The notes under the pieces were generated by a model, which saw nothing but the letters and a program-made list of their open reading frames with translations, did not search any database and had not been told where the DNA came from. From Snodgrassella communis (GTDB taxonomy: Bacteria > Pseudomonadota > Gammaproteobacteria > Burkholderiales > Neisseriaceae), in the NCBI RefSeq assembly GCF_914768045.1, contig NZ_CAJZCD010000004.1, forward strand, positions 95,918-127,917: a stretch of DNA of 32,000 bases, read 5' to 3'. The position numbers were made by a program, and so were the translations under genes. Shown here piece by piece: positions 3,636 through 29,547 of the stretch (positions are counted from its first letter, which is position 1; every line of letters begins with the position of its first letter).

Positions 3636-4925
3636 TTATCCTTCAAGCAGCTGCTTGCCCAGATAATCGTTTTCTCTGGCCATTCCGGGTAATACAAAGA
3701 AAAAGCCACCACCAAATGGTTTGATATAGCGTTCCAGTGGTTCACCATTTAGGCGGTTCTGAGTATCGATAAAGCCTTTTTTCAGGTCATTCTGGTAGGC
3801 AACAAAAATCAGTCCCATATCAAGCTGGCCACTGGGTAAGATACCCAGTGAGTAACTGAAGCTGCGCCGGCGCAGCTTGGCTACATGCCGTTCCGGAATA
3901 CGTGGTTCAGCACGGCGCATGTGGGAATCAAACAGAATACGGTCGCCATGCGGGTCGAGATTCATTTGCGGATCATCCATTTCGTGCTGCATGCCGATAG
4001 GTGCGCCACTGATTTTGTAACGGCCAAAATCGTTTTCCTGATCTTCCAGTGGTGTTCTGTCCCAGAATTCCAGATTAAAGCGAATCAGGCGGATAGCCTG
4101 ATAACTGCCACCCAGACACCATGCAGGTTCATGGTTAGCGGCAGTTACCCATACCAGTTCATCCATCAGTTTGCTATCGGTGATGGGTGCATTGCCGGTG
4201 CCGTCTTTAAAGCCAAACAGATTGATGGCTGTACTGTGCCTGTCGATATCGCGAGCCGGCAGAAACCCGTCCATTTTCCAGACCGGTACCATGAGCTTGT
4301 TGCAGTGACTAATCAGGTCGCGCAAGGCGTAAATCACGCTTTCGCGGCTGTTGGCACAAAACTGAATCGATAAGTCTCCGCCACACCAGTTTTTTTCCAG
4401 TCGGTCATTGGGAAAGCGAGGCATGGGAATCAGTTTTTTCGGTCTGTGCTTGGCCAGACCAAAGCGCTGGTCAAACAGGCTGGCACCTACCGCTACGGTA
4501 ATGGTAAGCGAATCGGGTGACAGGTTATGGCCGAGCAGCCCTGATTCCACTGGTGGTAGCTGATCATTTTTTCCTGTGGTCAGTTGCTGAGGTCGGGTGA
4601 GATAGGCGATGCGTTGAGAAATAAGCTGCAATAATTGTTGTAGCTGAGCTTTTTCCCGTGTGGTGACATTAAAGGTAACAAAGATAGCTTCTTTAGTGTC
4701 TGGTGTGATTACGCCGGCCTGATGGCTGCCCCAGTAATCGACTGCCTGATTATAATCGTGTGTACAGTTGCTGGCCGCACTGGCTGGTTTGCTGGCACCG
4801 ATACCGGCTATGCCCAGTCCTCCGGCCAGCAGCATTTTCATGCCGTGGCGGCGGCCGAGACTGGCAGGATTGTCTTCAGGCGTGGCAGCTGAGTCTGGCT
4901 GATGTCTGAAGGTATTCTTTTGCAT
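3636..4925 (-). CDS. efeB: DyP-type heme peroxidase / deferrochelatase EfeB, Tat-exported
   Basis: 429-aa ORF. N-terminal twin-arginine region (SLGRRHGMKMLLAGGLGIAGIGASKPASA) and the DyP signature FGFKDGTGN. Last gene of the FTR1-type permease operon. Confidence 0.9.
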   Translation of the reverse strand: MQKNTFRHQPDSAATPEDNPASLGRRHGMKMLLAGGLGIAGIGASKPASAASNCTHDYNQAVDYWGSHQAGVITPDTKEAIFVTFNVTTREKAQLQQLLQLISQRIAYLTRPQQLTTGKNDQLPPVESGLLGHNLSPDSLTITVAVGASLFDQRFGLAKHRPKKLIPMPRFPNDRLEKNWCGGDLSIQFCANSRESVIYALRDLISHCNKLMVPVWKMDGFLPARDIDRHSTAINLFGFKDGTGNAPITDSKLMDELVWVTAANHEPAWCLGGSYQAIRLIRFNLEFWDRTPLEDQENDFGRYKISGAPIGMQHEMDDPQMNLDPHGDRILFDSHMRRAEPRIPERHVAKLRRRSFSYSLGILPSGQLDMGLIFVAYQNDLKKGFIDTQNRLNGEPLERYIKPFGGGFFFVLPGMARENDYLGKQLLEG

Positions 4926-8711: not shown

Positions 8712-10107
8712 AAAGCCGCAATAGTGCTGTCAAACACGGATGGCGGCAGACAAATGGCAGGGTTGACAGACCGACAAAGAGAACCGGTAGGCGTAAAGCC
8801 TCCCTGCCATTGTCCACCATAAGTCAGGTGAAGCAATGAACATTTACAGACAAAAAAGCTATTCCATAAGTGAATAGCAGCGTGTCTGCCTCTTTAATCA
8901 GCCTGTCAAAGCTGGCTGTGCTATTGAACACAACGGCTTTATCTTGCCGTTAAAGCTTAATACTGTCAATTATTGCTGCATACCAGATGTTTCGGTTGTT
9001 TGCTGTGTATTTTCATTCTAAGTAAAAGCTTTCTGCCTGCTGATTTTATTGTGCTTGTTTTATTGCTGAAAATTGATTTCAAGTTAATTTTTATTTGTAT
9101 GGCATGTTGGATCTGTTACCGATCTGGCAACAGGCTGTAACAGCAAACCGTCACTTTTCGGCTTAGTGATTTTTGTCTTCATCATAAGGTGTACTGAAAA
9201 TTGTCAGTGGGTTTAGCTGGATAAACCGGCTGGCTGTTAATCATGGCAATAGAAGTGAATAAAGCAATGCACGCAAGATGCCGCATAATTCAGACAGAAT
9301 ATATAACTTATTTTAATTTAGTGATTTCGCTTATCCTGTATGGATGATGGTGAGCTATTTTACACTAATAGCATTATTTTAATAGGCACTCAGAATAAAT
9401 CAATTTAATAAATAAAGTAGCCGTTTAAATTATTAAAATTAATATCAATCAATTACCAAAATAGATTATGATTATTTTTTCATTAAAAAATCGGGCTGAT
9501 GCTAGTGGCCTAATACTTAAATTTCTGTTCAGTGGTTACATTTATAACCGATAGCCATTTCAAGCTGCTCCGGTGGTGGTATTGTCAGAGCTTCTTCAAT
9601 CAAAACCTATTGCCAGCCGTCTATTTATGTCTGAGTGATAAGCGCATTACCTATAACATTGAAAAAACCGCTGTTGCTGTAATCCAGAAATATCAGATTG
9701 CATGTAAGCTTTCTCCCCAAATATAGCCTGAAACCCATTGTCATCCATTAGATGATTGCAATAGCATATAAACAGAATTCTTGAACAGACTAGTTTTTTG
9801 GGTAAAGAACTTAAATCACTTCATTAAATTTAAGCATGTCCATTATTAAAGCATTTGTATTAAATATGCTTATATTATATTGACACCGCCTGAAACACAC
9901 TAATCCGGCAGTTTAAGAGTTGATTTTCGACATGGCCGGATGCAGTCAACCAGTAATCCCCGTCTGGATTTAAAAGCCAGCGTTATCGAAACTGCTTTGC
10001 AATCAAAACCAGTTATTGAGCTGTTTGTTTAAAATAGGAGCAATAGAGAAAGCATCAGACAGAATCCAACGCTTCCTCTACTGCTGTATTCTGATCATTC
10101 AGCGTAA

Positions 10108-12348: not shown

Positions 12349-12424
<76 letters not shown>

Positions 12425-18160: not shown

Positions 18161-19774
18161 CTATCTTTCTTTTATCTGCTCCCAGCTTAAATCAAACTTG
18201 GCCAGATATTTTTTCAGCCTGTCGGCATCATTGGCGCGTTGTTTCTGTGCCCGCGATACAGCAAACAGATAACGGCCGGCCTCGGATAGCGTTCGGCTTT
18301 TACGGCATACTTCAATTACCTTTTCCAACTGATAGCGGTCGAATTCATCAATTGCAGCCGGAATCAGTGTATGAGAGGGCGTAGCCTGCTGCCAGTGTTG
18401 CTGTAGGCGCTGAATTTCATCTTCAACCTGTGTCAAAGTGATATTACCTTGCGTGGCCAGTGTAGCCATGCGGGTAATGGAAGCAGTGAGTTCGCGGAAA
18501 TTACCTGTCCATAGCGCGCTGGCCGAAGTAGCAAAGTTTACATAGCGGGTTCTGGATTGCTGATTAAAGCGTGGCATGGTGCCATATTCCTGTGCATAGC
18601 GCGCCAGCTCAAAATCAATATTCGGCTCAATATCCTCTTTGCGTTCTGCCAGCCCGGGTAATTGATAACTCCATAAATTAATCCGCGCGTATAAATCTTC
18701 CCTGAACGTACCACAGGCAATTGCCTGTTTTAAATCTTTATTAGTGCCGGCAATCAACTGAAAGCGGCTGGAGACCAGCTTATCCGAACCCAAAGGGTAA
18801 AAATGTTTTTCTTCGATAGCTTTTAACAAAATCGCCTGCTCATCCAGCCCCAGTTCACCGATTTCATCCAGAAACAAAAGGCCGTTATCAGCCTCTTTGA
18901 GTAACCCGCTTCTGGGCATAACTGCACCGGTATAAGCCCCTTTGCTATGACCAAACAAAGTTGACATGGCATTATCACCGCTCAGCGTAGCGCAGTTAAT
19001 TTCCACAAACTGGCCACTTATCTGATGCTTATTCAGCTTAAGCTGATAAATTTGCCGGGCAAGAAAGGATTTACCGGCGCCGGTAGGGCCACATAGCAGG
19101 ATGGGCGCATGGGAGCGGCTGGCTACCTGCTCTATTTCAGTAATCAATTGGTTATAGTGCTGGTTTCTGGTAGCAATGCCGGATTTAAGTAATTCAGTGG
19201 CTTGGCTGGCGTATTGCTGAAAGCGAGTCAGAATCTGGTCGTAACGATTCAGATTCAGGTCAATGATATTGATTTGTCCGCGGCAGCATAACTGTTGATG
19301 CGCTGCCGGCTCAGCTAACGCCATTTCATGCCGTGCTGCTCCTTTGGTCGGCGATAATTGCAGCAGTCTGGCCGGATAAAAGCGTGATTCTGCCAGCAGA
19401 AACCAGCAAATCTGCATAACGTGCGTGCCGGTAGTAATATTTAAATAATAATTTTCCTGTTCGTAATCAAATTGATAGCTTTTAGCTAAATCCAGTAAAC
19501 AGGTATACACCTCCTCAAAATCCCACGGGTCATGTATATGCACTGCTACCGGATTAACCTGTGTATCCGGGGCAATGGTTTTAATATCCTGAATAATTTC
19601 AGCCAGTAACTCATTATCATTGACCTGATAAAGCAGCTCAAAGCGGGATACCGGTAGTTCCGGATGATTACAGACATCAACTGTTGGCCGCCAGCGCCCC
19701 CAGCGTTTTCTGCCTTTACCGCGCTGGTCAAGCACATTACCTAAAAAGCCGAATACAACGTTTTTCCTGTTCAT
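18161..19774 (-). CDS. rtcR: Sigma54-dependent transcriptional activator RtcR (CARF-AAA+-HTH)
   Basis: 537 aa. Walker A GPTGAGKS, a GAFTGA-type sigma54 contact loop (GHSKGAYTGA), and an N-terminal ~185-aa non-receiver domain as in E. coli RtcR (532 aa). It is divergent from an rtcB operon. Confidence 0.9.
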   Translation of the reverse strand: MNRKNVVFGFLGNVLDQRGKGRKRWGRWRPTVDVCNHPELPVSRFELLYQVNDNELLAEIIQDIKTIAPDTQVNPVAVHIHDPWDFEEVYTCLLDLAKSYQFDYEQENYYLNITTGTHVMQICWFLLAESRFYPARLLQLSPTKGAARHEMALAEPAAHQQLCCRGQINIIDLNLNRYDQILTRFQQYASQATELLKSGIATRNQHYNQLITEIEQVASRSHAPILLCGPTGAGKSFLARQIYQLKLNKHQISGQFVEINCATLSGDNAMSTLFGHSKGAYTGAVMPRSGLLKEADNGLLFLDEIGELGLDEQAILLKAIEEKHFYPLGSDKLVSSRFQLIAGTNKDLKQAIACGTFREDLYARINLWSYQLPGLAERKEDIEPNIDFELARYAQEYGTMPRFNQQSRTRYVNFATSASALWTGNFRELTASITRMATLATQGNITLTQVEDEIQRLQQHWQQATPSHTLIPAAIDEFDRYQLEKVIEVCRKSRTLSEAGRYLFAVSRAQKQRANDADRLKKYLAKFDLSWEQIKER

Positions 19775-19934
19775 AGGATTGTTTTACTGGTTTATAAATA
19801 TAAATAAAATTATATATAAATTTATAAAATCATGCTGGATTTAATCAATAAAGATCTGGCAAATAATTTAAAAGTATAATTATTTAATTAAGAAAATTAA
19901 TAGTTTATAAAAAATATCTAAAAAATTTACCTGT

Positions 19935-19950
19935 TGGTACAGTAATTGCA
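19935..19950 (+). promoter_or_regulatory. Sigma54 (-24/-12) promoter of the tRNA-like/SPFH/rtcB operon
   Basis: TGGTACAGTAATTGCA compared with the consensus TGGCACG-n4-TTGCW. The GG and GC dinucleotides have the correct spacing. It lies 160 bp from the rtcR start and faces away from it. Confidence 0.8.
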
Positions 19951-20094
19951 ATAAAGCCTGTGTCTGCAATACATGCTGTCTGATATGGCAGTCAGGTGCA
20001 TAGCGAATGCTGCCGGATTCGCCGCAAGGCCAATTTATTTGCATTATCAACATGTATTCCTGAGTATGAAAGACACCTCCCTTTCACGGAGTAT

Positions 20095-20170
20095 TTTTGA
20101 ATAGCTCACTGGATAGAGCAATTGGCACCTAACCAATCTGTGACAGGTTCGATTCCTGTTTCAAAAACCA
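20095..20170 (+). ncRNA. tRNA-like RNA (complete 76-nt cloverleaf with encoded CCA, non-canonical A33) in the rtcB operon leader
   Basis: Acceptor TTTTGAA/TTCAAAA; T8 A9; D arm GCTC-ACTGGATA-GAGC; anticodon stem ATTGG/CCAAT with loop CACCTAA; variable loop CTGTG; T arm ACAGG-TTCGATT-CCTGT; discriminator A; CCA. It lies about 135 nt downstream of the predicted sigma54 start site and 275 nt upstream of the SPFH start. Confidence 0.8.
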
Positions 20171-20445
20171 CGTAGTAATACTTGTCGTATTAAGCAATAC
20201 CAGCCAGTAAATGGGAATAAGCAGAGTAGCAAAAGCTTAGGCACAGGAAAAACCGGTTAACCGAACAAACTCAACATCGTTGTTTTTGTCTGGGTAAAAA
20301 AACCGGATAGCAGGCAAAAAATTTATTAACCATAATCAGGCAGTAATCAGATTAAGGTTATCAATCTTTCCCCTGTTATTCCGTTACTTAATCCATTTGA
20401 TTGTGTTCATCCGATTTACTGGCTGCAATAGACTGGAGAATGAAT

Positions 20446-22020
20446 ATGTTAACCATAATCGATGTAAAAAAAGGTGAGCTGGCTGTTGTAAATAAACGGG
20501 ATGAAATCAACACCATCGTTAGCGCTGGCCGGCATACTTTCTGGGATCCCTTTTCAGCAATAACTTATTATCCGGTAGATTTGGCCGATACCGAAATCGA
20601 ACCGAACATCGCTGAAAAGCTACTTAATTTTTATCCGCAGCTAGTAGAAAAATATTGCCATATCGTTAACGTTGCCGATAATGAAATTGCCCTGCGCTAT
20701 GAAGAAAACATGCTGGTAGAGATTATCATGCCCTCTACCAAAGCACTGTACTGGCAGAGTTATAAGGCGCAATCGATTAAAAAAGTCACTTTGCAGCAGG
20801 GCTACCGCCTGCCGGATGAAATAGCGCTGGAACTGATACAGGCCAAAAATACCGCCAGATTAATTACCGGTATCGACAATATCAAACTGCATTATTTTGT
20901 AGATGAGCAGATTGGCACACTATTCGTAGATAACCAGTTTGTACAGATTATTCCGCCAAAATCCGTAATAGGCTTATGTGAATTCAAACATAAACTTGTA
21001 TTGGGAAAATTCAAATTACAGGACAACCGTATCGATGACCTGCTGGCGGCCACGATTGAGCAGAATGCACCAGAACAGATGCAGCAATACTGTGTACAGA
21101 TGCAGGTAGGCGCTAATCAGGCCGGATTACGCTTCGAGGATGACCTGCTGGTAGAAATCCTGCCGCCGGGAACAAAACGATTATATTGGCAGAATAACTG
21201 CAAGCAGCACATGCAGACTATTGAGCTGGCTGCCGGCTATCAGCTATCTGAGCAAATGGTACAGCAGTTATTACAGCCTAAATTGCGTCAAAAAGAAGTG
21301 ATTGGTGACAGCAGCGTGCTGATTGCACAGGTACCGGCCTATCATGTTGGCGTATTAAAAGTAAATGGTAAAGTGGAACAGCTACTGGATGCTGGCATCA
21401 CCGCTTACTGGCGCTTTAACCGCGAAATCAGCGTTGAAATCGTCGATACACGCTTGCAGACTGTCGAAATTTCCGGACAGGAAATTCTGACCCGTGACAA
21501 AGTCAATCTGCGTATCAATCTGGTAGCCAACTGGTGCTATACCGATGTATTAACTGCTTTTGCCAAAGCTGCCCAGCCGGTGGAACTCTTGTACCGGCAA
21601 TTGCAATTTGCCTTACGCGAAGCAATTGGTACCCGCACACTGGATGAATTACTGGAAAACAAAGATGTGATTGACGAAGTCATCAATGCGCATATGCAGG
21701 CGAACATGACAGGCTATGGAATTGAAACCATTAGCGTAGGCGTGAAAGACATAATTCTGCCGGGCGACATGAAAACCATACTGGCGCAGGTAGTGGAGGC
21801 TGAAAAAGCGGCACAGGCAAATGTAATCCGTCGCCGCGAAGAAACTTCCGCCACCCGCTCCCTGCTGAATACCGCCAGAGTAATGGAAAGCAATCCAGTG
21901 GCTTTGCGCCTGAAAGAAATGGAAACACTGGAACGAATTGCCGAACGCATCGATAAAATTTCAGTTATAGGCGGTCTGGATCAGTTATTACATGGTCTGA
22001 TCAACATCCCGGCGAAATAG
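20446..22020 (+). CDS. SPFH/band-7 (slipin-like) domain protein with a duplicated N-terminal module
   Basis: The C-terminal half has SPFH hallmarks (VPAYHVGVLKVNGKVEQLLDAGITAYW...VDTRLQTVEISGQEILTRDKVNLRINL...IETISVGVKDIILPGDMKTILAQVVEAEKAAQANVIRRREETSATRSL). GGAGA RBS 6 nt before ATG 20446. The track ORF starts at TTG 20401. Confidence 0.85.
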   Translation: MLTIIDVKKGELAVVNKRDEINTIVSAGRHTFWDPFSAITYYPVDLADTEIEPNIAEKLLNFYPQLVEKYCHIVNVADNEIALRYEENMLVEIIMPSTKALYWQSYKAQSIKKVTLQQGYRLPDEIALELIQAKNTARLITGIDNIKLHYFVDEQIGTLFVDNQFVQIIPPKSVIGLCEFKHKLVLGKFKLQDNRIDDLLAATIEQNAPEQMQQYCVQMQVGANQAGLRFEDDLLVEILPPGTKRLYWQNNCKQHMQTIELAAGYQLSEQMVQQLLQPKLRQKEVIGDSSVLIAQVPAYHVGVLKVNGKVEQLLDAGITAYWRFNREISVEIVDTRLQTVEISGQEILTRDKVNLRINLVANWCYTDVLTAFAKAAQPVELLYRQLQFALREAIGTRTLDELLENKDVIDEVINAHMQANMTGYGIETISVGVKDIILPGDMKTILAQVVEAEKAAQANVIRRREETSATRSLLNTARVMESNPVALRLKEMETLERIAERIDKISVIGGLDQLLHGLINIPAK

Positions 22021-22070
22021 CCGCTTAAACCATACTGATTGATTAAACAGAAAAATAATGAAAGATAAAA

Positions 22071-23297
22071 ATGCAAAAATATGAAGTATTAAAAGAAAAT
22101 AAAACCCGTCCGGTAAAAATGTGGACTAAAGGTGTACCCGTAGAAGATACTGCCAAAGCACAATTGCTGCAAACCGCAGAACTGCCCTTTATTTTTAAAC
22201 ATATTGCCGTAATGCCGGATGTACATCTGGGACGAGGCTCTACCATAGGTAGCGTGATTCCTACTACCGGCGCAGTTATTCCGGCTGCGGTTGGCGTAGA
22301 TATCGGCTGTGGCATGATGGCTGTGCAATTATCACTTACCGCACAGGATTTGCCGGAAGACTTAATGCCATTGCGGCAGGCGATTGAAAAAGCCGTACCA
22401 CATGGCTCTACCCCCGGTAATAAAAAATATGATAAAGGTAGCTGGCATAATCCGCCACCGATTGTACAAGCGTACTGGCAGCAGTTATTGCCCGGCTTTG
22501 AAAAACTCACCAGCAAATATCCGCGCTTTTTAAAAGCCAATAGCTTGCATCATCTGGGTACACTGGGCAGCGGTAATCACTTTATCGAAATTTGTCTGGA
22601 TGAAACTGATCAGGTATGGATTATGCTGCACAGCGGTTCACGTGGTATTGGCCATGCCATTGGCAAATATTTCAGTGAGCTGGCGCAAAAAGAAATGAAA
22701 AAATATTTTATTGATACCTATCTGCCCAATAACGATCTGGCGTATTTTGCCGAAGGCACCGAATATTGTCGTGATTATCTGCAAGCTGTGCATTGGGCGC
22801 AGGACTTTGCCCGCGTAAACCGTGAAGTGATGATGCACAACACCATTGCTGCATTACGCCAAGTAATTAATGTGCCATTTACCACGCATCTGCAAACCAT
22901 AAACTGCCATCATAACTACGTGCAGAAAGAACAGCACTTTGGTAAGAATGTATTTGTTACCCGTAAGGGTGCTGTTTCTGCACGCGAGGGCGAATTGGGG
23001 ATTATTCCGGGCTCAATGGGGGCAAAAAGTTATATCGTGCGCGGTTTGGGAAACACCGAAAGCTTTCATTCCTGTTCGCATGGGGCAGGGCGGGTAATGA
23101 GCCGCGCCGAAGCCAAAAGGAGATTTACCGTTGCCGACCAGATGCAGGCTACCGCCCATGTAGAGTGCCGTAAAGATGCAGAAGTCATCGACGAAATTCC
23201 ACTGGCGTACAAAGATATCGATGCCGTAATGCAGGCGCAGCAGGAGCTGGTGGAAATCAGGCATCAATTGCGTCAGGTTATCTGTGTCAAAGGCTGA
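22071..23297 (+). CDS. rtcB: RNA 3'-phosphate / 2',3'-cyclic phosphate ligase RtcB
   Basis: 408 aa, the same length as E. coli RtcB and near-collinear with it (VKMWTKGVPVE, PFIFKHIAVMPDVHLGRGSTIGSVIPT, AAVGVDIGCGM, GSGNHFIE, HSGSRGIGH, CHHNY, SHGAGR). Confidence 0.96.
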   Translation: MQKYEVLKENKTRPVKMWTKGVPVEDTAKAQLLQTAELPFIFKHIAVMPDVHLGRGSTIGSVIPTTGAVIPAAVGVDIGCGMMAVQLSLTAQDLPEDLMPLRQAIEKAVPHGSTPGNKKYDKGSWHNPPPIVQAYWQQLLPGFEKLTSKYPRFLKANSLHHLGTLGSGNHFIEICLDETDQVWIMLHSGSRGIGHAIGKYFSELAQKEMKKYFIDTYLPNNDLAYFAEGTEYCRDYLQAVHWAQDFARVNREVMMHNTIAALRQVINVPFTTHLQTINCHHNYVQKEQHFGKNVFVTRKGAVSAREGELGIIPGSMGAKSYIVRGLGNTESFHSCSHGAGRVMSRAEAKRRFTVADQMQATAHVECRKDAEVIDEIPLAYKDIDAVMQAQQELVEIRHQLRQVICVKG

Positions 23298-23457: not shown

Positions 23458-24373
23458 ATGATTTATGTAAGAATAGATGTAAGCAAGAAAACGTTGGATT
23501 GTTGTGTGCTTGATGCTGACGATGAAGTTTATCTGAAAGTGCAGAATAGTCGGGCTGGTTATGATGAGTTTGTTGGCTCTGTATGATGATGTGCATGTAT
23601 GTCTGGAGGCTACTGGGGCATATTGGCAATCACTGGTTGATTTTCTGGGTGCTAATGATGTGCGCGTATCTGTAGAGAATCCGGCTAAGGTTCATTATTT
23701 TGCTAAAGCCAGTATATTGCGTATGAAGTCTGATAAGCGTGATGCGTTGTTAATAGCCGATTATTGCCAAGCTATGAAGCCAAGGTTGTATAGCCCATTA
23801 GATGAATCAGTGGCGGAATTAAGGCTATTGGTAAGCATGTATTATCGTTTAAGGAAACAAAGAGTATCTGAACGCGTGAAGCTGTTGGAGGTTCCGGCGC
23901 TGGTAAGGCATTTTGTTGAGTCCAATATAGCGCATTTCGATGCTCAGTTGTTGGAAGTGAAGAAGATGTTGGAAGCATTTTTTGAGGGTAACGCAGATTT
24001 AGACTGTAAGCCTAAGTTGTTGCAGACAATTCCGAGTATTGGTTTTAATTCCAGTGCGGTTTTATTATCGGTTTTGGCTTCTAGTAATGCGTTTGAATCT
24101 GCGAATCAGTTTGTAGCCTATCTTGGCTTGAATCCTCGCAAGATGGAATCTGGCACATCGTTGAAAGGTGCGGGGCGTGTATCTAAAGTTGGCAAGCCTG
24201 AGTATAGGGCTGCATTGTATATGCCCGCAGTGGTTGCTTATTCAAGGAATTTGTATCCTGATTTTGTAGCTAGGTTGCGGGAGAATGGTAAGATGCCGAA
24301 AGTTATTATTGTGGCACTTATGCGTAAGCTTGCGATTTATGCGTATACGGTTTATAAGACGAATTTTGTATAA
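23458..24373 (+). pseudogene. IS110-family (DEDD) transposase, interrupted by a frameshift
   Basis: The N-terminal part MIYVRIDVSKKTLDCCVLD...AGYDEFVGSV stops at 23584-23586. The rest continues in another frame, open from 23537 (LLALYDDVHVCLEATGAYWQS...KSDKRDALLIADY...). The IDVSK, LEATG and DKxDA motifs are typical of the IS110 family. A one-base indel between 23537 and 23586, or a sequencing error, separates the parts. Confidence 0.8.
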
Positions 24374-24504
24374 AGTATAAATAAGTGTTAATTTTGTAAG
24401 GTGGTTGGAAATTCCTAATCTGTTGTTATTTTGCAATTTTATCCAATATGTGTAAATTTTTTGTTGACACTTAAAATGTAAATACCCCAAACTTAGTACA
24501 AGGT

Positions 24505-25341
24505 TTAGGTAGAAAATAATGCTGCTTGTTTTAGAGTTTTATACTCAATCGGTGTCATATTATTTAATGCCTCATGCGGTCTTTCAGTGTTATAAAGGGT
24601 TAGCCATTCTTCAGTTATCTTTCTTGCTTGTTCCAGATTATTAAATAGATATAAATCCAATACTTCTGTGCGATAGGTACGATTAAATCGTTCAATATAC
24701 CCATTTTGATATGGGCTGCCTGGTTGAATATAATCTATAGTTATACCATGTGACTTTGCCCAATAAGTGAACGTATTTCCGGTGAATTCCGGTCCATTAT
24801 CTACTCGTATTTTTAGTGGATAACCATGATATTCAGCTAGTTTATCCAGGTAACGAGTAATCCTGCCAGCCGGTAAACTGACCGCAATATCAATGCCCAG
24901 TGCCTCACGATTAAAGTCGTCTATCACATTGAAAGTTCTGAAACGCCGTTGATTGCGACTGCTGTCACTCATAAAATCCATTGACCAGCATTCACCTTGT
25001 TTATTGGGTACTGATAGTTTTTCTGGGCTTCGTGGAGGAATCCATTGTTTACGCTTTACCCTCAGATTAAGTTTCAATTCACAATACACCCGATACACAC
25101 GTTTATGATTCCATTTATAGCCGAGCTTTCTGATGCGATTAAAACACTTGGGAAAGCCCCAGCGTAAATGTTTATCGGTAACAGCACTTAGTACTGACAT
25201 AATCACTGAATCATCCGGTAACTTGGGTTGATAATAGTAAGCACAGCGACTTAAGCCAACAATAGCGTAGCTCATAGCAATAGTAACAGAATGACCTTCT
25301 TGTAGTTGTACAGCCCAAGCTTTACGTGCCTTTGTGGGCAC
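24505..25341 (-). CDS. IS3-family transposase OrfB (DDE/rve catalytic domain), expressed as an OrfAB fusion by -1 frameshift
   Basis: WSMDFM, IRVDNGPEF and YNTERPHEAL supply the D, D and E of the rve domain. The frame is open back through the slippery site (KKALVPTKARKAW). Confidence 0.9.
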   Translation of the reverse strand: MPTKARKAWAVQLQEGHSVTIAMSYAIVGLSRCAYYYQPKLPDDSVIMSVLSAVTDKHLRWGFPKCFNRIRKLGYKWNHKRVYRVYCELKLNLRVKRKQWIPPRSPEKLSVPNKQGECWSMDFMSDSSRNQRRFRTFNVIDDFNREALGIDIAVSLPAGRITRYLDKLAEYHGYPLKIRVDNGPEFTGNTFTYWAKSHGITIDYIQPGSPYQNGYIERFNRTYRTEVLDLYLFNNLEQARKITEEWLTLYNTERPHEALNNMTPIEYKTLKQAALFST

Positions 25342-25774: not shown

Positions 25775-27037
25775 TTATATTTTTGGATAATTCTTTTCCA
25801 CAAGATCTGAATATACTCCCCCTAAACAATCACTACAGAAAAAATCAATTTGTTTAATTATAGATGCAAAATCTAATGGACGAATATAATCAAATTTATC
25901 GGTTTTAAAGCCAACATTTAATACAAAGCAATAATCTTCAAAATCATAGATTTTCAGGCCTTTTGAATGAGTTAAATTTTCCATAATAGATGAACATTTA
26001 GCAATTAAGCAGATATACTGAAAATTTTTATCTATATAAGTGGTCTTATTTTCAGGGTGAGCCATACAAAAATGTTGATTTGGTGTTATAGCAATTAAAT
26101 TTTCAAGGTAATCTGCAATTTCAGGGAAATCAGACTTTGTGAAAATATGATGAATTTGGCTTGCTAAAATATTTTCACCTAATTGATAAATTTCAGATTT
26201 TCCGTTGCGATATTTATCATTGAATTTACGCACATCTTTTTTCGCTTTTTGCACCAAATATTCTCGGTAATTCTTTGATGGCAGATGTTCTAGCGATTGA
26301 TGTTCTTGACGTGAAATTTGTTTCGACTTTCCTGATAGTTCATCTCGCCAGTTTGAGCGATTATAAGTGATATCTTGCAATGTAATCAGGTTTTCGGAAA
26401 TATATCCTTTTTTTGTTCCACACTTTTTATATTTGAATGCTAATGGGTTAATGACCTTTGAAAAAATTCTTCCACACTCTGTACTACCATTAATTGGTGT
26501 ATGGGTTATCGTGAATAATGTAAACGTTTCTTTTAATTGTTGATAGCTCTCTTTATCTTGTCTTTCAAGAAAATAATTAAAACTAGCTGCCAACTCACTG
26601 TCTACTAATACTTTTTCGATATAAAGAGTAAGAAAATTCAATGTATTTAATGGACGTAAAGCAATATCTTTTAATAATTCAAGGTTGTTAATTTCATATG
26701 AGTATCTGGTACCAACTTTAGTTTCAATCAAAACTTGACTATAAGCAAGTAACTTAATAGGTTGTCCAAAATACTTATCATATTCATTGCGTGATTTTTG
26801 GCTAGGATCTGGTTTTGAAAATATGGCTTGCACATTTTCCTGAGCATATTTACTATCCCAAATATCTTTAACTGTAAAAGGGATTGATGTGCTTGATTGT
26901 GTATATTCTAGAATACAGTCAGCAATAATTTGCACGACATCATAAGTGCATTTTTGATCAATCCAACGCGCATTACCTGATAGTCTCACATCGTAATTAT
27001 ATTTTGATAAGAAATTTTGAATCTGGATAGTACTCAT
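25775..27037 (-). CDS. Restriction endonuclease candidate with HNH-like (beta-beta-alpha-Me) motif
   Basis: 420 aa, very AT-rich, last gene of a three-gene cassette with two MTases. The motif QIHHIFTKSDFPEIADYLENLIAITPNQH has the form HH-x15-N-x6-N-Q-H. No other family is recognisable by eye. Confidence 0.6.
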   Translation of the reverse strand: MSTIQIQNFLSKYNYDVRLSGNARWIDQKCTYDVVQIIADCILEYTQSSTSIPFTVKDIWDSKYAQENVQAIFSKPDPSQKSRNEYDKYFGQPIKLLAYSQVLIETKVGTRYSYEINNLELLKDIALRPLNTLNFLTLYIEKVLVDSELAASFNYFLERQDKESYQQLKETFTLFTITHTPINGSTECGRIFSKVINPLAFKYKKCGTKKGYISENLITLQDITYNRSNWRDELSGKSKQISRQEHQSLEHLPSKNYREYLVQKAKKDVRKFNDKYRNGKSEIYQLGENILASQIHHIFTKSDFPEIADYLENLIAITPNQHFCMAHPENKTTYIDKNFQYICLIAKCSSIMENLTHSKGLKIYDFEDYCFVLNVGFKTDKFDYIRPLDFASIIKQIDFFCSDCLGGVYSDLVEKNYPKI

Positions 27038-27038
27038 T

Positions 27039-28391
27039 TTATATTCCTATTTTTAAACCAAACCAAAAGACGCTATTGGTATCAATATTTAACGATCTTG
27101 TCTGATAATTTCTTGCAATTTGATAAAAATGTCTGAATTCAGAACTTGCATAGTATTTTAACTCATCATCTGATAGATGGTATGAAAATTTAGGTATTAA
27201 AACTGCAACTGAACCATTCATAATGTAACCTTTTTGTTTTCGCATTAATCTAGGCTTATAGGTCATATTAGGTGTTAAATAAACATCTTCACGATCAAGA
27301 TATTTAGCAACGGATAATTTTAATAGTTCAGTTTGATCAATATAAGCATCATAATTTTCTATATCTATAATTTTGTTACCTAAATCGCTAATATTTCTTG
27401 ATTTTAAAATTCGAACTTGTTCTGAATGATTTTTAATTAACGATGAATTTTTATTTGTAATCTGACGATCTCTGAAAACAGTAAACTTGTTAAATTTTAA
27501 CTTTTTAAATACCTTATCAAAATCTTGATCCCTATATATAACCCAATAAGGTAAAGCAGAGTCAAAAATATAATTTGCTTTCTGGTTTAATTTTAGTTCT
27601 TTAGGTAAAGAATATACATCAATATTTTTTTGATCATTTTCTTTCAAGTTACAAATTATATTGATTGTTTCTATTAATACACCCTTAAAACCTAATTCAC
27701 CAAAATCTAAAATAGATTGAATCTTGCTATTTGTTAACTTTTTTCTTGTTTCCTTATATTCTGGGGTGTTTAGTAAATTTTTGGGCATAACCAAAGAAAT
27801 AACGTCTGCACATTGTAACGATTTTTCTAGAAAAAAGGCCGAGAGATTTTTGATATTTTGGCTGTAATTTTCTATATCAAAAAAACTAAAGTCTGTTTTT
27901 TTGAGCTTTGTAAATGGTGGATTGCCAATAATTAAATCAAACCTTCTCTCTGGTTGATATAGCATAAAATCATCACAAATAAATTCGAGTTCAATATTAT
28001 TTGGTAATCGTTGTTGACTATAAATCAATTTTACCCATTCTAAAGTTTTTGGGTTAATATCGATTAACGTGACTTTTACTTTCGGGATATGTTTATATTT
28101 CTCAAACAAGAAAGGTAAGAAATTACCTGCACCAACTGATGGTTCACAAATATGTAGTTGAGATTTTTCTACAAAATCAGGTAAATAGTTAATGATTTCT
28201 TGAATAATAAAAGGATTTGTATAATAAGCAGAGTGATTTTCTCTTTCACTATTACTCAATTCAATAATACGAGAAAGTACTGTGGTATCTATAGTATTAT
28301 TTTTGAATTGCGATAAAAGGTAATTAGATAAACAATTCTCATCATTAAGTTGATGTTTTTTGATTAGTTGTAATATTTCTTTCTCTGTCAT
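27039..28391 (-). CDS. N6-adenine (amino) DNA methyltransferase, gamma-class motif order
   Basis: Motif I ICEPSVGAGNFL precedes motif IV DLIIGNPPFTK, as in TaqI/Eco57I-like methylase domains. 450 aa. There is a 1-nt gap to each neighbouring gene. Confidence 0.8.
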   Translation of the reverse strand: MTEKEILQLIKKHQLNDENCLSNYLLSQFKNNTIDTTVLSRIIELSNSERENHSAYYTNPFIIQEIINYLPDFVEKSQLHICEPSVGAGNFLPFLFEKYKHIPKVKVTLIDINPKTLEWVKLIYSQQRLPNNIELEFICDDFMLYQPERRFDLIIGNPPFTKLKKTDFSFFDIENYSQNIKNLSAFFLEKSLQCADVISLVMPKNLLNTPEYKETRKKLTNSKIQSILDFGELGFKGVLIETINIICNLKENDQKNIDVYSLPKELKLNQKANYIFDSALPYWVIYRDQDFDKVFKKLKFNKFTVFRDRQITNKNSSLIKNHSEQVRILKSRNISDLGNKIIDIENYDAYIDQTELLKLSVAKYLDREDVYLTPNMTYKPRLMRKQKGYIMNGSVAVLIPKFSYHLSDDELKYYASSEFRHFYQIARNYQTRSLNIDTNSVFWFGLKIGI

Positions 28392-28392
28392 A

Positions 28393-29547
28393 TCAAATTA
28401 CTTGCTTAATCTTTTCTGCAACTGTTTTAAATATTGCTGTTGGTACAGCTTCACCAATACTTTGACGAATATTCATCTCATTTTTCTTAGAAATTTTTTG
28501 TTTTTCTACTAAAGGTAAATTATTCAATGTTTCTAATGATATATCAATCCATTTAAACTGATCAGGAATAGTCATTAATTTCATTAATTCACGAATAGAA
28601 AAGACACGATCATCTATTGGATGCACAGTATTCTGACTTGCTAGTTGATCATTTCTAGTATGGATACACGGGGCAACTTTATCATAAAGTTGGCGAGTGT
28701 ATTTATCACCATTTTTGGATTTGTTAAGAATTATTTTACCATTTACAATTTTATGAGGACGTTTACTTAATTCGACATTATCAAAAGCACTTTGTCCTTG
28801 CTTAATATCTGTTATCCAAGCTCTCATATGTTCAGGGTAAACACGAAAACTATGATAAAAATCATTATTATCATATTCCCCCCAATCAAGAGATTTCATA
28901 TTGCCAATTACTTGCTCAAGAGTAACTTCATCACGTTCGTCAGGAAAAAATTGACTAGGTGAAAGTAATAAGTTTTTATCTACCCCAATTACTAAAGTTC
29001 TTGTGCGAGATGAGTTTGAACCATAGTTCTTAAAATTGATAATTCGGTGTTCAACCTGATAATTTGTTGCCAATTCAGCTAAAATTAAATCACCAATAGC
29101 AACCACTTCGCCTTGATTATTCATACAACCTGTTTTCCAAAATGCTTGGACATTTTCTAAAATAAAAAAACATGGACGAATATGCTTTATCATATTTACG
29201 CTTTCAACTACAAGACTGTTTCGCTCAATCTCATTTTCTTTTTTCTTATGGTTAGCCACGCTCATACCTTGGCAAGGAGGTGTTGCAATAACTACATCAA
29301 CACGATCATTACCTAATTTTTGCCAACGCTGGACTTCTTGATAAATGCGTTGTTTGGTTTCATCTTGTTTAATATCACCATTAATATATCCAGAATCAAA
29401 TCGACACTTTTTATTAATTTTTTGGATATTAATTCTTCTTTCAATTAACTCATTAGTTGCAATACATTCATAATCATTTAATTTAAACCCATAACATCCC
29501 ACTCCAGCAGATGAAAAAAGACTTATATATGTATGTTTTTTACTCAT
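28393..29547 (-). CDS. DNA cytosine-5 methyltransferase
   Basis: Motif I LFSSAGVGCYG, motif IV TPPCQGMS, motif VI ILENV, motif VIII SRTRTLVIG, and C-terminal IRELMKLMTIPDQF and QSIGEAVP. Confidence 0.9.
   Translation of the reverse strand: MSKKHTYISLFSSAGVGCYGFKLNDYECIATNELIERRINIQKINKKCRFDSGYINGDIKQDETKQRIYQEVQRWQKLGNDRVDVVIATPPCQGMSVANHKKKENEIERNSLVVESVNMIKHIRPCFFILENVQAFWKTGCMNNQGEVVAIGDLILAELATNYQVEHRIINFKNYGSNSSRTRTLVIGVDKNLLLSPSQFFPDERDEVTLEQVIGNMKSLDWGEYDNNDFYHSFRVYPEHMRAWITDIKQGQSAFDNVELSKRPHKIVNGKIILNKSKNGDKYTRQLYDKVAPCIHTRNDQLASQNTVHPIDDRVFSIRELMKLMTIPDQFKWIDISLETLNNLPLVEKQKISKKNEMNIRQSIGEAVPTAIFKTVAEKIKQVI

Follow-up and report, generated by a model that had tools for sequence, protein, structure and literature searches.

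A probable non-decoding tRNA-like domain of the b7a type in the predicted leader of the slipin-rtcB operon of Snodgrassella communis

A stretch of 32,000 nucleotides (nt) from the genome of Snodgrassella communis (contig NZ_CAJZCD010000004.1, positions 95,918 to 127,917), which is called the window throughout and to which all position numbers refer unless a locus is named, contains a complete cloverleaf at 20095-20170. This element is a tRNA-shaped, structurally conserved RNA and is located upstream of the genes for a slipin, a protein of the SPFH/Band-7 type, and for the RNA ligase RtcB. It is very probably a non-decoding tRNA-like domain of the b7a type, so that the finding is the rediscovery of a predicted class and no new kind of element. 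Taken as a whole, the evidence is best explained by a non-decoding, tRNA-shaped leader domain that would work through its shape, for which we estimate a probability of roughly 0.6.

20095-20170, plus strand: tRNA-like domain of the b7a-tRNA type (ARAGORN, Rfam tRNA, covariance model R1, covariation)

All the tRNA features which had been listed in a preliminary description of this DNA, i.e., the acceptor stem, T8, the D arm, the loops, A73 and CCA, are present where that description placed them. The acceptor stem TTTTGAA/TTCAAAA consists of 7 base pairs (bp), six A:U and one G:C, and is followed by T8 and A9 and by a D arm of the form GCTC-ACTGGATA-GAGC that contains G18 and G19; positions 15 and 48 are occupied by C15 and G48. 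The anticodon stem ATTGG/CCAAT carries the loop CACCTAA with A33 at 20127 and the nominal anticodon CCT at 20128-20130. The variable loop is CTGTG, the T arm is ACAGG-TTCGATT-CCTGT, and the 3' end is formed by the discriminator A73 and by a CCA encoded at 20168-20170 (ACCA). The cloverleaf is the minimum-free-energy fold of the 76 nt, the energy itself being unremarkable (-17 kcal/mol, z -1.65).

ARAGORN and Rfam, which had been proposed as checks, both accept the element. It is called as tRNA-Arg(cct) at 20095-20170 by ARAGORN and matches the Rfam tRNA family RF00005 with 52.8 bits (E 8.6e-9 over the 32-kb window), compared with 72.4 bits for an ordinary tRNA-Phe gene at 12352-12424 on the minus strand. 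No credible match to a Y-RNA or any other Rfam family was obtained at 19000-21000 up to an E-value of 10, and a scan of 15 related loci at gathering thresholds also matched the tRNA family only. A second tRNA-like or minihelix unit was not found in the window, also with filters switched off, ARAGORN called no transfer-messenger RNA (tmRNA) in it, and Megablast against Escherichia coli genomes gave no match.

The family was surveyed in 80 loci anchored on slipin homologues, which represent as many species of Burkholderiales, Rhodocyclales, Neisseriales, Pseudomonas, and Enterobacterales. In 48 of these loci, ARAGORN reports a tRNA-like gene at a distance of 250-350 nt upstream of slipin; the nominal anticodons stand for many different amino acids, and for many loops no anticodon could be called. 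The covariance model R1, which comprises 48 units (47 from other genomes and the window's own copy), finds matches of 58-90 bits located 180-340 nt upstream of slipin in 66/80 loci and scores the window element with 79.1 bits, while one locus (L005) has a weak, degenerate copy with 26.5 bits. In the cloverleaf alignment, 93.3% of the cells are paired and in 15 of 21 pairs both partners have changed. These values were reached by none of 500 shuffles, and slid controls paired at 32-44%. A chance match can be dismissed because the same element is found at the same place in 66 of the 80 loci and covariation is present in all four stems.

The same observations bear on the possibility that the element is a decaying, functionless tRNA pseudogene. 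Its Rfam score below that of a true tRNA and the loss of U8, U33, and CCA in relatives would agree with decay, but the element has been kept in place in at least 66 loci of Beta- and Gammaproteobacteria, with compensation in the stems and near-invariant D and T arms, by which this possibility is effectively refuted.

A full cloverleaf is lacking in 14 of the 80 loci (L007, L009, L017, L018, L020, L021, L030, L045, L068, L069, L071, L072, L075, and L077), which belong mainly to Enterobacterales and include two Pseudomonas (P. soli and P. entomophila). Most of these reduced loci have a T-arm/minihelix with GGGTTCGAnTCCC about 200 nt upstream of slipin and have kept the other leader motifs.

Which parts of the unit are constrained was counted in 65 distinct units. 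The T loop reads TTCRAnT and the variable loop has 5 nt in all 65 units, and A14, G18/G19, A21, and G46 are near-invariant. The anticodon loop has 7 nt in 29 units, with U at position 33 in 16 of them and A, C, and G in 5, 4, and 4, respectively, so that U33 in a 7-nt loop is found in 16/65. The loops of the other 36 units have 3-6, 8, or 17 nt and mostly take the form C-GAAA-G, C-GCAA-G, C-GCGA-G, or C-UUCG-G. U8 is replaced in 13/65 units, CCA is encoded after the discriminator in 6/65, many homologues have no G1, and of 48 sequences, 28 fail to pair at the acceptor position 1:72 and 21 at 2:71. Ordinary tRNAs encoded in arrays of the same loci served for comparison: of 23, all have a 7-nt loop and 22 encode CCA. 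To judge from these counts, the tRNA body is under selection in its four stems, in the elbow formed by the D and T loops, in the 5-nt variable loop, and at the tertiary position 15:48, and the anticodon loop and the CCA end lie outside this selection. The perfect 7-bp acceptor stem and the encoded CCA of the window copy are an exception in the family.

Positions 15 and 48 depend on each other, in that G15 occurs with C48 in 27/32 units, A15 with C48 in 12/13, T15 with A48 in 11/17, and C15 with G48 in 2/3. This dependence is confounded by phylogeny, but it agrees with a tertiary contact that has been maintained and that often takes the swapped orientation.

Three deviations from ordinary tRNAs had been singled out in the preliminary description, namely A33, an acceptor stem made almost entirely of A:U pairs, and a compensated swap at 15:48. 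All three are present in the window, but they turned out to be lineage details that do not define the element. A33 has nothing special about it when the whole anticodon loop varies in length and sequence across the family; it is simply a shared state of the bee-gut clade formed by the window, Snodgrassella alvi, and Gilliamella, and no special device. Likewise, a weak or frayed acceptor end is found family-wide. For the 15:48 swap, both C15:G48 and the dependence of the two positions were confirmed, but Y15:R48 pairs in 17/65 units deprive it of any special standing. As a family trait, the encoded CCA could not be upheld either, given its rarity among the units and the TCA end of the S. alvi copy.

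The closest orthologue is that of S. alvi, whose slipin is 95-96% identical. It differs from the window element at three positions, none of which lies in a stem: U8 is changed to A, T36 to A, by which the 'anticodon' CCT becomes CCA ('Trp'), and C74 to T. A functional tRNA would be damaged by each of these changes. The Gilliamella orthologues have the loop CAAGGGA (AGG) or a loop of 5 nt. The earlier reading of the element as non-decoding is supported by these changes in S. alvi and by the free anticodon loop of the family.

An ordinary decoding tRNA-Arg(CCU) gene that lies beside rtcR by chance is thus very improbable, even though several features would suit it. The window copy is accepted by ARAGORN and Rfam and has a 7-bp acceptor stem, and its A20, C35, U36, A73, and CCA correspond to the identity elements of the E. 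coli arginyl-tRNA synthetase (ArgRS). Moreover, homologues have been annotated as tRNAs, for example PA4581.1 of Pseudomonas aeruginosa PAO1 as tRNA-Arg4, which is atypical in having no CCA and in having G20 (2026 paper, PMC13637947). These features are outweighed by A33, by the S. alvi orthologue, which reads CCA together with A8 and has no CCA end, by the AGG or 5-nt loops of Gilliamella, by the lack of any anticodon constraint in the family, and by the fixed place of the unit inside the leader of a σ54 stress operon.

The preliminary description had also suggested a bait, decoy, or reporter for anticodon nucleases, which would be cut instead of real tRNAs or whose fragments would feed RtcR, with RtcB resealing the break. 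It is known that damaged tRNAs activate RtcR (PMC7790460), the 7-nt loop of the window copy is intact, and an arms race could in principle have made the loop hypervariable. The suggestion is nevertheless disfavoured, and we regard it as improbable, because the anticodon stem ends in a loop of other than 7 nt in more than half of the family, mostly in a hyperstable GNRA or UUCG tetraloop that is unlike any anticodon loop. Furthermore, the loop sequence differs even between S. communis and S. alvi, and the nuclease that induces the operon in Salmonella leaves YrlA's tRNA-like domain uncut (PMC7790460). Since the loop and the CCA end are free and the elbow and the stems are fixed, mechanisms for this element must make use of the tRNA shape and not of decoding or anticodon cleavage.

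The surroundings of the element consist of the following features:

18161-19774, minus strand: rtcR, σ54-dependent activator with an N-terminal RtcR/CARF domain (Pfam PF06956 RtcR, 9.5e-71; PF00158 Sigma54_activat, 1.5e-48)
19935-19950, plus strand: σ54-type promoter element TGGTAC-AGTAA-TTGCA (-24 GG/-12 GC), read from the sequence
19951-20094, plus strand: 5' leader (RNAalifold on Snodgrassella and Gilliamella leaders)
20171-20445, plus strand: structured 3' trailer up to the slipin start (RNAalifold, family motifs)
20446-22020, plus strand: slipin (SPFH/Band-7), 524 amino acids (aa) (Pfam PF01145 Band_7, 4.3e-31)
22071-23297, plus strand: rtcB, 3'-phosphate/5'-OH RNA ligase (Pfam PF01139 RtcB, 4e-128)

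The Pfam assignments of the flanking genes rtcR, slipin, and rtcB bear out the Rtc RNA-repair context that had been proposed for the element. The rtcR gene runs divergently from the element, as in most related loci, and slipin starts at 20446 on the same strand as the element, 275 nt downstream of it. In most related loci, slipin is followed by an RtcB homologue, either directly or past one extra gene. The order of rtcR on the minus strand, σ54 element, leader, tRNA-like unit, trailer, slipin, and RtcB is kept in most of the 80 loci. A matching TGGCAC-N5-T(C/T/G)GC(A/T) motif, which ends 115-199 nt before the tRNA-like unit, is found in 56 of the 66 unit-bearing loci, and a σ54 element precedes slipin in 14/14 reduced loci and in 71/81 sources overall. 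Transcription from the σ54 element is predicted to start at about 19960. Neither a σ70-like promoter just upstream of the window element nor a terminator-like site downstream of it was found, and the simplest reading is that the element would be co-transcribed from the RtcR-dependent σ54 promoter.

The span from the σ54 element to the slipin start amounts to 442-608 nt in 57 distinct sequences. In the 5' leader of the window, CAGGTGCAT (19993-20001) pairs with ATGTATTCCTG (20052-20062) across a 2-nt bulge, with variable hairpins inside, and the motif GGTGCRY...RYGCATGCCGCC of this helix is conserved in 57 leaders. On the 3' side, a hairpin directly following the discriminator is found family-wide (20176-20192 in the window). 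Further family motifs of the trailer are GCAGTACCCGCCGG, which takes the form GCAATACCAGCCAG at 20194-20207 in the window, GGCAGGCA (window 20310-20316), and a family-wide TTCCCC before the Shine-Dalgarno (SD) sequence, which reads TTTCCCC in the window, where the SD sequence GGAG is located at 20435-20438. The window trailer also has a helix of 20301-20314 with 20372-20385, which contains GATAGCAGGCA. For five Snodgrassella and Gilliamella trailers, RNAalifold yields a fold with 65 pairs, 21 of which have compensatory changes; the helix of 20301-20314 with 20372-20385 is part of this predicted fold.

In GC-rich homologues, an 11-bp long-range helix of the trailer closes a domain of about 150 nt. 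It has double changes at 11/11 pairs and 93.1% pairing, which was reached by 0/500 shuffles, and slid controls paired at 27-37%; these values refer to 33 gap-free rows, with seven A+T-rich or poorly aligned rows left out, among them that of the window, which could not be aligned to this helix. In the 57-sequence alignment, the antiparallel search yielded no more helices of 4-5 bp than a parallel-strand control, and therefore the claim is limited to the long trailer helix and the fold at clade level. A Y-RNA-like stem closing the leader against the trailer (19957-19966 with about 20240), which appeared in a single-sequence fold, was rejected, as its two S. alvi differences are non-compensatory.

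Together, these features indicate that the tRNA-like unit is one domain of a conserved structured leader RNA of about 500 nt. No published description of a structured slipin-rtcB leader was found in the literature searched, and the larger covarying leader RNA is the part of the finding that may be new. A more far-reaching and somewhat doubtful proposal is that the leader as a whole (about 450-600 nt) is an undescribed large structured RNA, which could either hold together RtcB and a soluble cage of multi-repeat slipin as a ribonucleoprotein (RNP) scaffold or sense RNA damage in cis. Its parts would be the GGTGCRY/RYGCATGCC helix, the 11-bp long-range helix, and one or two tRNA-like or minihelix modules.

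Additional units of this kind are found in other leaders. In many β-proteobacterial loci, the cloverleaf is preceded by a 'minihelix' consisting of an acceptor stem and a T arm without D and anticodon arms, for example at L060:3576-3629, at L061:3597-3648, and in Burkholderia leaders just 5' of the full unit. Most Pseudomonas loci (L024, L026, L027, L033-L035, L037-L039, L044, L047, and L048) have two complete tRNA-like units in tandem with zero spacer, such as those at L026:3574-3643 and 3644-3717. The first unit of the Pseudomonas tandem has a G+C-rich acceptor stem and a tetraloop-type 'anticodon' arm.

Predictions of tRNA-like RNAs in bacterial Rtc repair operons date back to 2014-2016. 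In the mechanism that we consider, a tRNA-shaped non-decoding domain would be transcribed from the RtcR/σ54 promoter within the leader of about 500 nt of the slipin-rtcB operon. Its L-shaped body, i.e., the elbow and the acceptor/T stack, would be a handle bound by slipin and/or RtcB, and this handle would probably also be recognised by tRNA-processing or tRNA-modifying enzymes. Such a role would parallel that of the YrlA tRNA-like module in Ro-containing rtc operons. The trans-acting part of this mechanism, in which the element serves as a protein handle or cofactor, is tentative, and we would put it somewhat below even odds; excision from the leader, the binding partners, and an effect on RNA repair are further parts that we infer. 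The idea of an assembly cofactor, already raised in the preliminary description, matches a published hypothesis.

A purely cis-acting leader is possible but unlikely. Here, the tRNA-like fold and the leader would control how the slipin-rtcB mRNA is processed, how stable it is, or how it is translated, for example by 'punctuation' cleavage by RNase P and RNase Z or as a structural switch, without any role as an RNP cofactor in trans. In agreement with this, the unit is always contained in the σ54 transcript in sense orientation, has no promoter or terminator of its own, and is flanked by conserved structured domains on both sides. A minihelix of acceptor stem and T arm is the minimal substrate of RNase P, and the zero-spacer Pseudomonas tandems and the minihelix units make RNase P-type recognition attractive. 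Enterobacterial loci keep only the T-arm/minihelix part. Cleavage by RNase P has been reported for the YrlA of Mycobacterium smegmatis (bioRxiv 10.1101/312249). However, the frayed acceptor pairs (1:72 and 2:71) and the absence of G1 and CCA from most members do not suit bacterial RNase P, and the strict conservation of the elbow, the variable loop, and 15:48 exceeds the needs of a cleavage signal. In addition, the RNA level of the P. aeruginosa homologue is independent of Rtc induction, which suggests a stable separate species (PMC13637947).

Several points also weigh against the non-decoding leader domain working through its shape. The window copy may be charged by ArgRS, given that A20, C35, U36, A73, and CCA are all present, although charging is not the conserved trait because of the changes in S. 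alvi. Unpaired 1:72 and 2:71 positions and the absence of G1 make many homologues poor RNase P substrates, and excision as a free RNA of about 76 nt is therefore not assured. The full cloverleaf is dispensable in some lineages, because 14/80 loci have only a T-arm/minihelix remnant. Finally, quantitative reverse transcription PCR (qRT-PCR) revealed PA4581.1 at about half the level of canonical tRNA and unchanged upon induction of the Rtc proteins (PMC13637947). This uninduced level fits poorly with simple co-transcription, or it represents a stable processed species or an unspecific assay.

The putative partner protein, the window slipin, has 99% identity to that of Snodgrassella communis, a β-proteobacterium of the bee gut. 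Its AlphaFold2 (AF2) model, with a predicted local distance difference test score (pLDDT) of 83, consists of four five-stranded β repeats of about 72 aa, an SPFH domain, and a long helix, and no transmembrane segment is evident in the protein. The repeats, which occupy residues 1-290 (20446-21315) and are made of five β-strands plus helices, echo the first strands of the SPFH domain; homologues include short forms of about 380 aa with fewer repeats and forms of about 730 aa with more. With the full-length model, Foldseek finds stomatin (2.6e-13) and the major vault protein (MVP; about 1e-11 over 650-690 columns). Homology to MVP was considered and rejected, as this match was lost when the repeat region was modelled by itself (pLDDT 90.5), which gave no significant match in the PDB and no MVP among the top 50. 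For this reason, a vault-like RNP can be regarded as an architectural analogy only.

With regard to the origin of the family, the genuine tRNA-Phe of the window reaches 67.6 bits with R1, which is the top score among the true tRNAs scanned. The b7a family consensus and tRNA-Phe are alike in the D arm (TAGCTCAGTCGGTAGAGCA) and in the GTGTC-type variable loop, which hints at a descent from a tRNA-Phe-like gene. As for the cassette in the window, Snodgrassella and Gilliamella (L003/L004) share 69% identity in the long-form slipin, 72% in RtcR, and 73% in RtcB, and the acceptor stem TTTTGAA/TTCAAAA with ACCA is common to both. Identities to other lineages are at most 58-59% for slipin, 59% for RtcR, and 69% for RtcB. 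The two genera inhabit one niche, the bee gut, and belong to different proteobacterial classes. The whole cassette (18161-23297) has likely been transferred horizontally between them.

Six loci (L060, L061, L063, L070, L073, and L080) have neither RtcR nor a σ54 element, and in these, one to seven ordinary, CCA-encoding tRNA genes precede the tRNA-like unit, 1-2.5 kb upstream of slipin. This suggests that some cassettes, those in loci with tRNA arrays, lie in a mobile-element or phage-like context. Elsewhere in the window, rtcB is directly followed at 23561-25341 by an open reading frame (ORF) for an IS110-family transposase (270 aa, possibly truncated) and one for an IS3-type integrase; rtcA is not present in the window. 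An ORF at 25775-27037 (420 aa) has no match to a Pfam family and lies beside a restriction-modification module consisting of an Eco57I-like methylase and a C-5 cytosine methylase (27039-29547, minus strand). A C4 antisense RNA, i.e., an immunity RNA of the P1/P7 phage type, is located at 8739-8824 on the minus strand (Rfam RF01695, 55.7 bits), 3.5 kb from the tRNA-Phe gene (12349-12424, minus strand), and may belong to a prophage remnant.

Tools of the same general kind, in which a tRNA shape recruits tRNA enzymes, are known from the tRNA-like domain of tmRNA, from viral 3' tRNA-like structures, and from mascRNA-type elements, which have no relationship in sequence or context to the window element. 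Elements of the mascRNA type begin as part of a longer transcript, from which they are released by RNase P and RNase Z. YrlA, which is found in Salmonella and other Ro-encoding bacteria, is closer: like the window element, it is tRNA-shaped with conserved D and T arms, belongs to an RtcR-controlled rtcB operon, and does not decode. As the preliminary description had correctly stated, the two differ in that the anticodon arm of the window element is intact and its topology unpermuted, whereas YrlA is circularly permuted, has a closed acceptor loop and no anticodon loop, and uses its RNA ends as the Ro-binding stem. YrlA accompanies Ro/Rsr; in contrast, the window element has normal tRNA topology and a slipin partner, and no Ro gene lies in the window, where Pfam detected no Ro/Rsr (TROVE) domain in 20 ORFs, including every ORF of at least 400 aa.

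The P. aeruginosa element PA4581.1 (L081:2656-2729) belongs to the same RNA family as the window element, with an R1 score of 84.5 bits, and is likewise located between rtcR and the slipin-rtcB cluster. The slipin of this organism is PA4582/PA14_60630 (PaFlo8), which is encoded within the rtc locus (PMC13086221). Unlike the window element, PA4581.1 has the nominal anticodon ACG (Arg-ACG by ARAGORN), C32 and C33 in the loop CCACGAA, no encoded CCA, and a G+C-rich sequence; in contrast to other Pseudomonas loci, no second tandem unit was found in this locus. The tRNA-Arg labels given by ARAGORN to the window element and by annotation to tRNA-Arg4 of PAO1 may mislead analyses of tRNA repertoires and codon usage, and the routine annotation of b7a elements as real tRNAs carries a systematic risk of mis-annotation.

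The abstract of the 2016 study by Burroughs and Aravind is said to describe SPFH/Band-7 modules with 'a novel tRNA-like molecule'. The b7a-tRNA is treated in a later preprint as a predicted noncoding RNA beside a Band-7 protein and RtcB in some bacteria, which is possibly redundant with YrlA and lacks experimental validation, the prediction being credited there to Burroughs & Aravind, NAR 2016 (bioRxiv 10.1101/312249). The class is defined here after this citing preprint and after what the 2016 abstract is said to describe. The window element agrees with it in the cloverleaf, in the adjoining Band-7 gene on the same strand, in the linkage to RtcB, and in its homology to elements at the same position in other genomes. 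The window copy is more tRNA-like than most members, with its 7-bp acceptor stem, ACCA end, and 7-nt loop, and is unusually rich in A:U pairs, but nothing essential differs.

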